Assembly: GCA_044892525.1 (NCBI GenBank)
Contig: CM097885.1
Location: forward strand, 22,446,001-22,510,000
Reading direction: 5' to 3'
DNA: 64,000 nt
DNA from: Schmidtea polychroa
Taxonomy: Eukaryota
Position 1 is the stretch's first letter; every line of letters starts with the position of its first letter. The notes beneath the pieces are model-generated. The model saw nothing but the letters and a program-made list of their open reading frames with translations. It was not told where the DNA came from and did not search any database. Below, piece after piece: positions 22,401-25,400 of the stretch. The position numbers were made by a program, and so were the translations under genes.

Positions 22401-25400
22401 GACTCATCAAGGTCATTTTCAAGGTCATATGACTCATAATATGACTCATCAAGGTCAAAAAAATTTTCTCAAGGTCATTTAAACAAAGACCATAACTCAT
22501 CAAGGTCACTTTCAAGGTCATATGACTCATAGTATGACTCATTTGACCTTGAAAAATTTTTTTCAAGGTCATATGACTCGTCCTATGACTCATCAAGGTC
22601 ATTTTCAAGGTCATATGACTCATAGTATGACTCAGTTGACCTTGAAAAATTTTTTTCAAGGTCATATGACTCATCCTATGCCTCATCAAGGTCATTTTCA
22701 AGGTCATATGACTCATAGTATGACTCATTTGACCTTGAAAAATTTTTTTCAAGGTCATATGACTCATCCTATGACTCATCAAGGTCATTTTCAAGGTCAC
22801 ATGACTCATAGTATGACTCATTTGGCTTTGAAAAATTTTTTTCAAGGTCATATGACTCATCCTATGACTCATCAAGGTCACTCTCAAGGTCATATGACTC
22901 ATCCGATGAGTCATCAAAATTTTCAAGGTCATTTTCAAGGTCATCTGAGTCATCCTATGACTCATCAAGGTCATTTTCAAGGTCACGTGACTCATCCAAG
23001 GTCATTCCCAAGGTCATATGAGTCATCGCGATGACTCATCAAGGTCATATTATTATTTTTAAAAATATTATTATTTTTATTATTATTTTTAAAAATATTA
23101 TTATTTTATTTTTAATTTTTTCAAAGTTCCCGCCAACGAAAATTAATAATCGATAGCTCATTTTAAAGCTCAATCCAAGACCTTTCGAATGAGCTATATA
23201 TCTTGTTACTATTATTATTATTATTATTATTATTATTATTATTAATCTATATACTCCGAGTCTATATACTCCTAGTCTATCCGACAAAATATTTTGTCCC
23301 CCTATGGGTAATGCTCACAAGGGTACTGGTCACGCTCAACAAATCAACAAATCAACAAAACATACATTTATTTAAACAATAAAATAATGTAAAATTAACA
23401 AAGGTAAACTAAATATTGATGTACTATTCGCAGCAATATTGTTAGAAATTGGTAACGTTGAATTGATTTTCAGAGATTCTATTGATCCTTTGATTGTTTG
23501 AATTTCTCTTAATAATAATTCAATCTTTTTTAACAAATAATCATGCTTCTTATCAATTATTTTCATATTCATTTTATTTTCAACAATAGAGTTATTGAAA
23601 ACCTTAATATGATCAATCAATTCAAATTTTATATTTTGTATATATTCAAATGATAGTTCATAACTGTTTTCTAAATTCTCCAATCTTTGAGATATTCTTT
23701 TTCCTGGATGCTTTGACCATTTTGGTTTGTCGAGAATATATAAAATATCCATCAACTTGGCTGTATTCGGACAAACACATATTGATTTATTAAAAGACTC
23801 CACTGTTATTGTTGTATTGTGTGAGCACACACTCGTTATAATAATTAGCAATATGAATATAGTTTTCATGGTGTATCAAATCAAAACCTTTCTTTTACAT
23901 TTATAGTCTATCAACCAATCAAAATCATCCGGTATTAGTATAAATAAAACATCATATTTTAAAATATTGTAAAAAAAAAAATGTCTAATTTAATGGAAAA
24001 TATGTGCAGAGAACTCATCAACAAGAATATTATGGAAAGCCTAATTTTCCTGGTCGATCGGACCGAAAAGATTATAGAAGGTAATCACATTGATTATGAG
24101 GACGTCCTCAATTCCGATTCCCTCGAAACAAAGAAATTCTATTTTAATAGAATATTTAATTGCTTATGCGACGAGGAGATGAAGTGGACCCGAATATTAG
24201 TAGGGTTCGCTTATATGAAGATAATAATTGAAAAAAGCCTATTGGATTCTGAGCACTATTATCAGTGGTCTCAAGAAGTAATACTTTTATAATCTATATT
24301 TTATTAATATATATTTTCTAGATAATCAAGTCAAAGTTTCAGCCATGGATTGAAGCCAATGGCGGATGGGGCGTGCTGAATCGACTCGCCAGAAATGCAA
24401 AAGAATTAGATCAGCAAAAAATCCAATTTAAAAACTATTTAAAACTTGCAACAGGTGTTGCTATTTTATATGTTTTATGTCGTTTTTTTAAATAAAATTT
24501 ATATAGTTATTTTGTTTGATTTTTAAATAAAATTTTAAATAAATTTACAAACACTAAGATTTATTAATTAACACATTCGCAGTCGTCATCTCCACATTTC
24601 ATTATATTTTCAACGACATGATCAATACAATCATTCGTAATATTATCTTTAGATTCATCTTTAGGTTCCTCTATAGGTTCCTCTATAGGTTCCTCTATAG
24701 GTTCATACATTTCCTCTTGTGTTTCTTCCTCATCAATTTCTTGAGTTTCTTCCTCATCATCAAATCCTGTATCTTGACTCTCAACTAACCAGCCGATATT
24801 TAAGGCATTTGTAATAGATAATATATCCTCCATTTTCACACCAGATATTTCTGCTAACTTTTCCAACAAAAAGTTGATTAAAAATTCTAAATAATAAATA
24901 ATTCGGTAATTAATTAATCATGTTAACCTTTTTCTGCAGTCATTTTCATCACTTTAAAACTATATTATAATTTTGTTTATAGATTTTCTTTGTTAAATTT
25001 GCATGTCATTTGCATTTATGTTGCAATTAATAAAGAGAAAAACAAATCTGACTAATACATTTATTAAATATAACATTAAAATATTTGTGAAAGTCTAGCA
25101 GACATAATTTTCCAAATAGGAGAATATACATCATTATTATCAACTTTATATCCCTGGATTGCTATTGTTATATACCAATTTTCATTTTCTTTGAAACTGA
25201 TTTCATCAAAAGCATCATAAAATCTTGCATATCTATTGTTGAACCATGCATGTTGATTACACGATAGATTCGAATCTATCCGTTTAAAAACATCATCAAT
25301 AGTTTTGACATCAATCATTGAAAGCGTGCCGGATAAGAATTCGAATTTAGTTGGAATTAGCTTGACTGGTGCAACCAATTTCATATTGATTTCTTCTTTC

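Follow-up and report, generated by a model that had tools for sequence, protein, structure and literature searches.

The window, a 64,000-nt stretch of planarian DNA, contains a conserved two-exon gene of the Bcl-2 family inside a multi-copy Maverick/Polinton element. The gene is likely a capture from the lineage of the host gene bcl2-1, and its product likely serves as a membrane-anchored blocker of cell death where the element is active; we give this reading a probability of about 0.7. Comparisons across copies and with cellular proteins establish the gene's structure, element context, copy number, purifying selection and closest cellular relative.

In the ORF reading of the window, the + strand frame that opens at 23981 meets a stop after 103 codons. 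The first-pass annotation had proposed that the ORF track shows only part of a Bcl-2-family gene, which is spliced across a 44-nt intron to give 156 aa, and the GT-AG borders, the two open frames and the conserved junction all bear this out. The spacer is the intron of a two-exon gene with the following parts:

23981..24277 (+), Bcl-2 gene exon 1: 99 codons (99 aa), with a short N-terminal helix, a degenerate BH3-position helix, a BH1-like KWTR and the first part of helix 6
24278..24321 (+), Bcl-2 gene intron: 44 nt, phase 0, GT-AG
24322..24495 (+), Bcl-2 gene exon 2: 57 aa, with BH2 PWIEANGGW, a linker and a hydrophobic tail with a basic end

The 3' border of exon 1 is the donor GAA|GTAATA, and the spacer (24278–24321) is 89% AT and ends in TTTTCTAG. 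The exon 2 frame stays open for 57 codons up to a TAA at 24493–24495, and the joined exons encode 156 aa. Exon 1 aligns without gaps to residues 37–126 of planarian Bcl2-1 (P0003; E = 4e-9) and exon 2 to residues 127–181 (E = 6e-10), with 26% identity overall (38/145). P0003 is ACW83059.1, or Smed-bcl2-1, and is listed as bcl2-1 in a row of the PMC4993586 supplement. Because the exon border falls exactly between Bcl2-1 residues 126 and 127 with no gaps, the acceptor at 24321 is preferred, and the exon junction is thus set by an independent cellular protein. Three further in-frame AG acceptors lie downstream of the donor, giving introns of 53, 59 and 65 nt; these were dropped, since the gap-free alignment and the AG|AT conserved across families are obtained only with 24321.

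The gene sits just inside the left inverted repeat of an inserted element, whose annotated features are:

22172..41693 (no strand), Maverick/Polinton (adintovirus-like) insertion: 19,522 bp, termini AGT...ACT, TGTGTG on both sides
22172..23416 (+), left terminal inverted repeat: internal tandem repeats, arms 96–99% complementary
26400..26837 (−), TBP-like gene: PF00352, E = 1.3e-15
26937..27563 (+), A32-like packaging ATPase: PF04665, E = 3.6e-7
28177..29268 (+), rve integrase with chromodomain: PF00665, E = 1.1e-5, below the family cut-off
30642..31862 (+), 406-aa conserved ORF: 77–84% identical in other families, 162 unnamed homologues
31862..32272 (+), adenovirus-type cysteine protease frame: PF00770, 27.3 bits, above the cut-off
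35246..38512 (+), DNA polymerase, 1088 aa: phrog_1907 DNA polymerase, E = 2e-20
39602..39928 (+), RING-finger ORF (C3HC4_3): PF13920, E = 5.7e-10, next to the right terminal inverted repeat
39921..41693 (−), right terminal inverted repeat: arms 96–99% complementary to the left

The long terminal inverted repeats and the target duplication of 6 bp, together with a DNA polymerase, an rve integrase, a packaging ATPase and a cysteine protease, are those of a Maverick/Polinton, and the gene set and ends match the plan given in PMC8097293. The earlier description of the carrier as virus-like therefore holds, with the Maverick/Polinton insertion enclosing the gene. The polymerase is presumably of the protein-primed family B. 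Judging by its size, position and conservation, the 406-aa ORF is likely a putative major capsid protein; the capsid-like ORFs had no named match in Pfam, NCBIfam, PHROGs or PDB. The RING ORF (39602–39928), which we take to resemble IAP-type RINGs, had no BIR match and is a possible candidate for a second regulator of cell death or ubiquitin. The integrase ORF contains an in-frame, GT-AG-bordered (ATT)n spacer of 75 nt (28565–28639, +), which in the one other copy matched, from another family, is 56 nt long and out of frame; it is therefore likely a second intron that ORF callers would render as poly-Ile. The TBP-like gene encodes 145 aa and is 55–91% conserved in other families. A 165-aa ORF (23372–23869, −) is divergently oriented to the Bcl-2 gene and 84% conserved in another family; both its termini are hydrophobic and its middle is coiled-coil-like, and the product may be secreted or exposed at the surface. 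The right end of the element adjoins a DUF659 (hAT-like) transposase remnant (41848–42652, −).

We searched 781 Mb of genome with this AT-rich window. The 661-bp gene region was 98–100% identical in 40 of 40 scored copies, the best of 1,527 candidates, and exon 2 matched at 95% or more in 150 of 150 scored copies out of 1,878 candidates, 68 of them identical, the window copy included. The candidate counts of 1,527 and 1,878 are not copy numbers; close copies number at least 150. Of seven divergent Bcl-2 loci whose flanks were inspected, six have a Maverick core gene or TBP-like gene no more than 10 kb away and the seventh (L107) has a weak match only, although in so Maverick-rich a genome such neighbours may be unrelated insertions. 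At one place (L084/L085, G000:C1:203.69–203.70 Mb) an inverted, head-to-head rearranged element copy holds two Bcl-2 genes and broken polymerase pieces. Two finds in the genome mark the host as a probable planarian: an orthologue 89% identical to a protein of Schmidtea mediterranea, and Burro-like polyproteins.

Adenovirus E1B-19K delays cell death until virions are made, and the first-pass annotation took apoptosis control to suggest an infectious cycle. A true extracellular cycle, in which a viral Bcl-2 would delay somatic cell death until virions are made, has in its favour that the element keeps the ATPase, the adenovirus-type protease and a conserved capsid-sized ORF, and that PMC8502044 makes the case for adintoviruses, with their Bcl2 and IAP homologues, being viruses. 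However, this copy is an integrated one, marked by a 6-bp target duplication, and no fewer than 150 close copies exist in the genome; Bcl-2 cargo is also found in planarian LTR retrotransposons: the giant Burro elements carry BCL2-like and BIR domains, according to section 7 of PMC6431247. Hence a Bcl-2 gene cannot tell a virion cycle from intragenomic transposition, and the earlier suggestion was overstated. An infectious cycle is compatible with the best explanation and may be entertained tentatively, but it claims more than the gene can show.

Assignment of the protein to the Bcl-2 family is based primarily on sequence. PF00452 is the sole Pfam family for each exon, in order (profile positions 11–67 and 86–100). 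Taken separately, the exons score 15.4 and 12.3 bits, below the cut-off of 31.4; among relatives, sister copies with an in-frame spacer score 32–34.5, the intronless L074 scores 32.7 and the host bcl2-1 orthologue 46.2 bits. The closest PDB sequences are BCL2A1 for exon 1 (E = 0.043) and Bcl-xL for exon 2 (E = 0.16), and a profile built only from element genes and the host bcl2-1 orthologue retrieved Bcl-xL at E = 1.7e-9 across BH1 and BH2, with 149 chains at E ≤ 1. The BH1-like KWTR, BH2-like PWIEANGGW and hydrophobic C-terminal stretch are present as first claimed. PWIEANGGW contains the BH2 motif WIxxxGGW and aligns with PWIQENGGW of Bcl-xL; the canonical BH1 NWGR is not found, KWTR keeping the Trp and Arg with the Gly replaced. 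The tail is predicted to be a membrane anchor, with a best 17-residue hydropathy of 1.71 (versus 1.39 in Bcl2-1) followed by basic residues.

Fold models were made of exon 1 alone and of the intronless relative L074, rather than of the joined 156-aa protein. The exon 1 model (pLDDT 61.5) had Bcl-2 family members in its top 14 Foldseek rows, all non-significant (E ≥ 0.86), and in VIA it gave generic helical matches, with a Bcl-xL chain only at rank 45. For the L074 model (pLDDT 81.4), 36 of the 36 listed Foldseek PDB rows were Bcl-2/Bcl-xL with probability 1.0, the best scores being modest (E = 1.9e-3, TM about 0.5), and the top seven VIA matches were all Bcl-2 family (Z = 9.1, rmsd 1.8, 68 aligned). 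Because VIA Z values of this kind lie within the range common for helical bundles, the sequence evidence outweighs the fold evidence. ESM Atlas matches were Bcl-2 clusters with recognition scores below the tool's reliability line, and are a lead only. A homologue search with the exon 1 ORF returned three candidates, two of them unnamed ENA fragments, and no full-length spliced form; a profile search of 1.84 billion representatives gave 104 matches at E ≤ 0.001, of which the first ten were mostly unnamed and none a spliced element protein. Three short, unnamed Bcl-2 proteins from ENA/Logan (P0006, P0007 and P0014) fall close to the bcl2-1 group; some come from contigs 11–14 kb long, and the three are possibly cargo of other elements in related animals.

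The groove of Bcl-2 proteins binds BH3 motifs of Bak/Bax-like proteins at mitochondria or the ER. We propose that a single capture by way of a spliced mRNA of the bcl2-1 lineage would have brought the gene into the element, that one element clade would later have gained a new short intron, and that the host spliceosome would remove this intron to yield the 156-aa protein. The tail would then anchor the protein at mitochondria or the ER, where its groove would bind BH3 motifs of host Bak/Bax-like proteins, so that the cell would live through the DNA damage and replication stress that come with amplifying and integrating the element, regardless of whether particles are made. A spliced, tail-anchored, 156-aa pro-survival protein of this kind, engaging host killers through their BH3 motifs and sustaining the cell during element replication and integration, is a probable reading of the sequence. 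The pro-survival role (BH3 binding and a block of apoptosis) is suggested by the donor's knockdown phenotype: RNAi of bcl2-1 leads to systemic cell death and lysis of the worms, as reported in PMC6970515 and PMC4993586. With only 26% identity to bcl2-1, the binding partners may have shifted.

Some viral Bcl-2-fold proteins act outside apoptosis, and the planarian protein could likewise be a decoy whose task is a different one, for example to block autophagy or innate signalling, to antagonize host Bcl2-1, or to promote death for release. Such a role would fit the low identity to the donor (26%), the shortened N-terminal loop and the non-canonical BH1. It is nevertheless unlikely, as the length, tail and BH1/BH2 spacing are gap-free with the pro-survival donor and the BH1 Arg is kept. 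Furthermore, the BH3-position helix reads LIFLVD rather than the LxxxGD that is the rule for killer BH3s, which argues against a killer BH3.

The replaced BH1 Gly had been taken as a sign of altered binding specificity, which claims too much for it. BH1 reads RWSR in Smed-Bcl2-1 and in the host orthologue L062, and KWSQ in P0005; the host donor lineage thus already lacked the Gly, and its loss is not an innovation of the element. Since Smed-Bcl2-1, a curated member, has RWSR, the Gly is not required for membership in the lineage, and since bcl2-1 is essential with a Ser at this position, the residue alone is no sign of altered function. Two intronless element copies read HWGK and QWGK.

A bolder scenario extends the cell-death-blocking function to the whole animal: Mavericks would have captured the worm's indispensable Bcl-2 gene, re-intronized it and amplified it to more than 1000 copies, with the element-encoded protein protecting the pluripotent stem or germ cells where the element integrates and measurably raising the host's resistance to apoptosis. 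We hold this to be decidedly unlikely; if true, a selfish virus-like element would tune cell death in a regenerating animal.

The closest cellular relative of the element gene is host bcl2-1. The window protein has a local score of 157 to the host orthologue L062, 68 to the next host paralogue and 53–57 to Burro. L062 is single-copy (one match at 100%, the next at 48%) and adjoins an intron-rich host peptidase gene. It contains an intron at GGW|GT, about 2.97 kb long, and its last exon is identical to Smed Bcl2-1 at 39 of 42 positions. The element tail aligns gap-free to this host last exon with 8 of 41 residues identical (block-shuffle p = 5e-5; p ≤ 0.0011 in five subfamilies). In a first tree of 26 rows, the element genes group with bcl2-1 at support 81/79. 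In a second tree of 44 rows, which adds 18 database rows, comes from one tree search and includes long branches, this grouping has 98/96, the element genes 95/82 and the intron-bearing clade 98/96. AU tests, run on the 26-row tree only, rejected neither monophyly of the element genes (p = 0.102) nor a grouping of the intron-type genes with Burro (p = 0.289).

Searching the genome for PF00452 brought up host-type genes and Burro-like polyproteins, along with element copies of the intron type and a multi-copy ORF that has no intron. All eight distinct host-type frames listed are continuous across the position of the element intron. The intronless ORF (L073/L074, at G000:C1:247.54 Mb and elsewhere) encodes a 144-aa Bcl-2 protein and belongs to a distant Maverick family, where its neighbours are homologous to those of the window's gene; it is 48% identical to the host orthologue, and its tail is shorter and different. 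The element intron occurs neither in the host gene nor in the intronless element relatives. The element gene is uninterrupted where the host has its roughly 3-kb BH2 intron, which makes capture from mRNA likely, and because the element intron is absent from the host gene, later intron gain is likely. The simplest history that we infer from these sequences, for both the direction of capture and the order of events, would be one capture of a processed message of the bcl2-1 lineage followed by intron gain in one clade. A stretch of about 0.9 Mb (L051–L057, G000:C4:89.9–90.8 Mb) contains seven Bcl-2-family frames that are nearly identical and show the canonical NWGR, either a tandem host expansion or a segmental repeat.

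Alternatively, some other mobile element (Burro, or a different virus) could have supplied the gene, or host bcl2-1 could itself be Maverick-derived, since the Burro grouping was not rejected on the 26-row tree and the sister placement of element genes and bcl2-1 in the 44-row tree gives no direction. In score, however, bcl2-1 exceeds Burro by a factor of about three; the host gene exists as one copy, neighbours a host peptidase gene and contains the GGW|GT intron; and the reading frames of several other host paralogues close in a similar way directly past BH2. A Burro origin is thus disfavoured by the scores, though not statistically excluded on the 26-row tree (p = 0.289), and we consider another origin overall quite improbable. 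Long frames that include a Bcl-2 domain and reach about 3,000 aa (L072, L129–L133 and many others) are consistent with Burro.

The intron that would have been gained after capture of bcl2-1 is conserved across copies. Of 80 loci fetched, 57 had both exons at E ≤ 1e-8 and formed the two-exon set; the other 23 were host genes, retrotransposon matches, intronless relatives and one copy with exon 2 below threshold. GT...AG occurs at the same codon in 57 of 57 two-exon loci, a sample that leans toward intron-bearing copies because the queries contained the spacer or read through stops. These loci carry 22 distinct spacers of 32–131 nt, 16 out of frame and 6 in frame with a terminal TAG, and reading through the spacer always meets a stop. 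Among 16 further, mostly more divergent loci (34–64% exon 1 identity), the spacer could be placed in 13 but not in the other three; it is GT-AG in 12 of the 13 and has a decayed donor in one. Spacer lengths in the divergent loci add the third phase, so that all three phases occur across subfamilies. In ten of ten subfamily pairs pN was lower than pS in both exons (Fisher p ≤ 1.2e-9), and dN/dS was 0.06–0.18 in nine pairs and undefined in one, values that are rough because synonymous sites are near saturation. By these codon comparisons, both exons are under purifying selection.

We also compared the gene with contigs of four sequencing runs, the RNA status of X1–X3 being a guess. The junction 24277/24322 that the first-pass annotation predicted for RNA was not listed in the four runs for this copy, but one X2 contig from a diverged copy has, before 24322, a loose end of 57 letters, the last 30 of which match the end of exon 1 at 25 positions by eye. 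We read this contig as the spliced form of a diverged copy, on the guess that the run is RNA. Two X1 contigs start exactly at 24322, and two X2 contigs start within the spacer, so unspliced or DNA forms exist; these counts are among the matches listed. No run was recorded as RNA among the listed holders of the gene sequence, which says nothing on expression. That the spacer is no intron, the gene being a frameshifted pseudogene or the 103-aa read-through its sole product, is extremely improbable: no spliced read was seen for this exact copy in the run contigs listed and the two X2 contigs start within the spacer, but GT-AG is kept in 57 of 57 loci despite free length change, exon 2 is under purifying selection and protein-identical in 68 of 150 scored copies, and the junction agrees with the host gene and the intronless relatives.

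Bcl-2 cargo in adintoviruses/Mavericks was already known; new here are likely the planarian member, the traceable essential donor and the likely intron gain. We found no account of a planarian Maverick Bcl-2 in the literature reached, subscription journals and Repbase being mostly outside it, so an earlier mention is possible. Anti-apoptotic Maverick/adintovirus cargo has been listed before, but the same literature yielded no donor tracing or tests. Here the donor seems to be a host gene that is essential and accessible to RNAi, in a group of laboratory animals, so the role of Maverick accessory genes becomes testable. Set side by side, the intronless and intron-bearing clades make a clear example of likely intron gain, in elements whose vertebrate members are described as lacking introns. 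ORF-based annotation misses spliced element genes of this kind, and planarian Bcl-2 counts or RNAi may be confounded by element copies.

Tested Bcl-2 proteins are known from exogenous viruses, namely adeno-, herpes-, pox-, irido- and asfarviruses. The planarian protein resembles these proteins in its small Bcl-2 fold and shortened N-terminal loop, and a BFVD search with L074, the intronless relative, ranks viral Bcl-2 proteins first (best E = 0.04), but there is no close sequence link. The first-pass annotation had taken adeno-, herpes- and poxvirus vBcl-2 genes as its reference; a viral-type Bcl-2 stands, whereas the closest published precedent is the Bcl2 of adintoviruses (Polinton/Maverick), for which Bcl2 and IAP homologues were reported by Starrett et al. 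2021 (PMC8502044). The adintovirus gene (for example A0A5H3CWZ2 of the Branchiostoma lancelet adintovirus, listed in BFVD) is likewise an accessory gene in an integrase- and PolB-bearing element, whereas the planarian gene is spliced and its donor traceable; the main text and the examined part of the supplement of PMC8502044 name no planarian. The structural match to A0A5H3CWZ2 is weak (E = 3.0, 14% identity), so the two captures were likely separate.

Burro likewise places Bcl-2 cargo in an abundant planarian mobile element, but its BCL2-like domain sits in a polyprotein of several thousand residues and scores only 53–57. Smed Bcl2-1 (ACW83059.1 / C9WPR4) shares with the element protein a gap-free alignment over 145 residues including the tail, a non-Gly BH1 and the helix 5–6 spacing. 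It differs in sequence (26% identity), the element protein being 28 aa shorter at the N-terminus, and in gene structure: the host's BH2 intron is missing from the element gene, whose own intron, between codons 126 and 127, is absent in the host. Finally, vertebrate Mavericks, in the account of Barreat and Katzourakis 2021 (PMC8097293), share the terminal inverted repeats, 6-bp duplication, AGT...ACT ends, core genes and flanking accessory regions; intact ones are described there as intronless, whereas the planarian element has a GT-AG intron in its Bcl-2 gene and likely another in its integrase.
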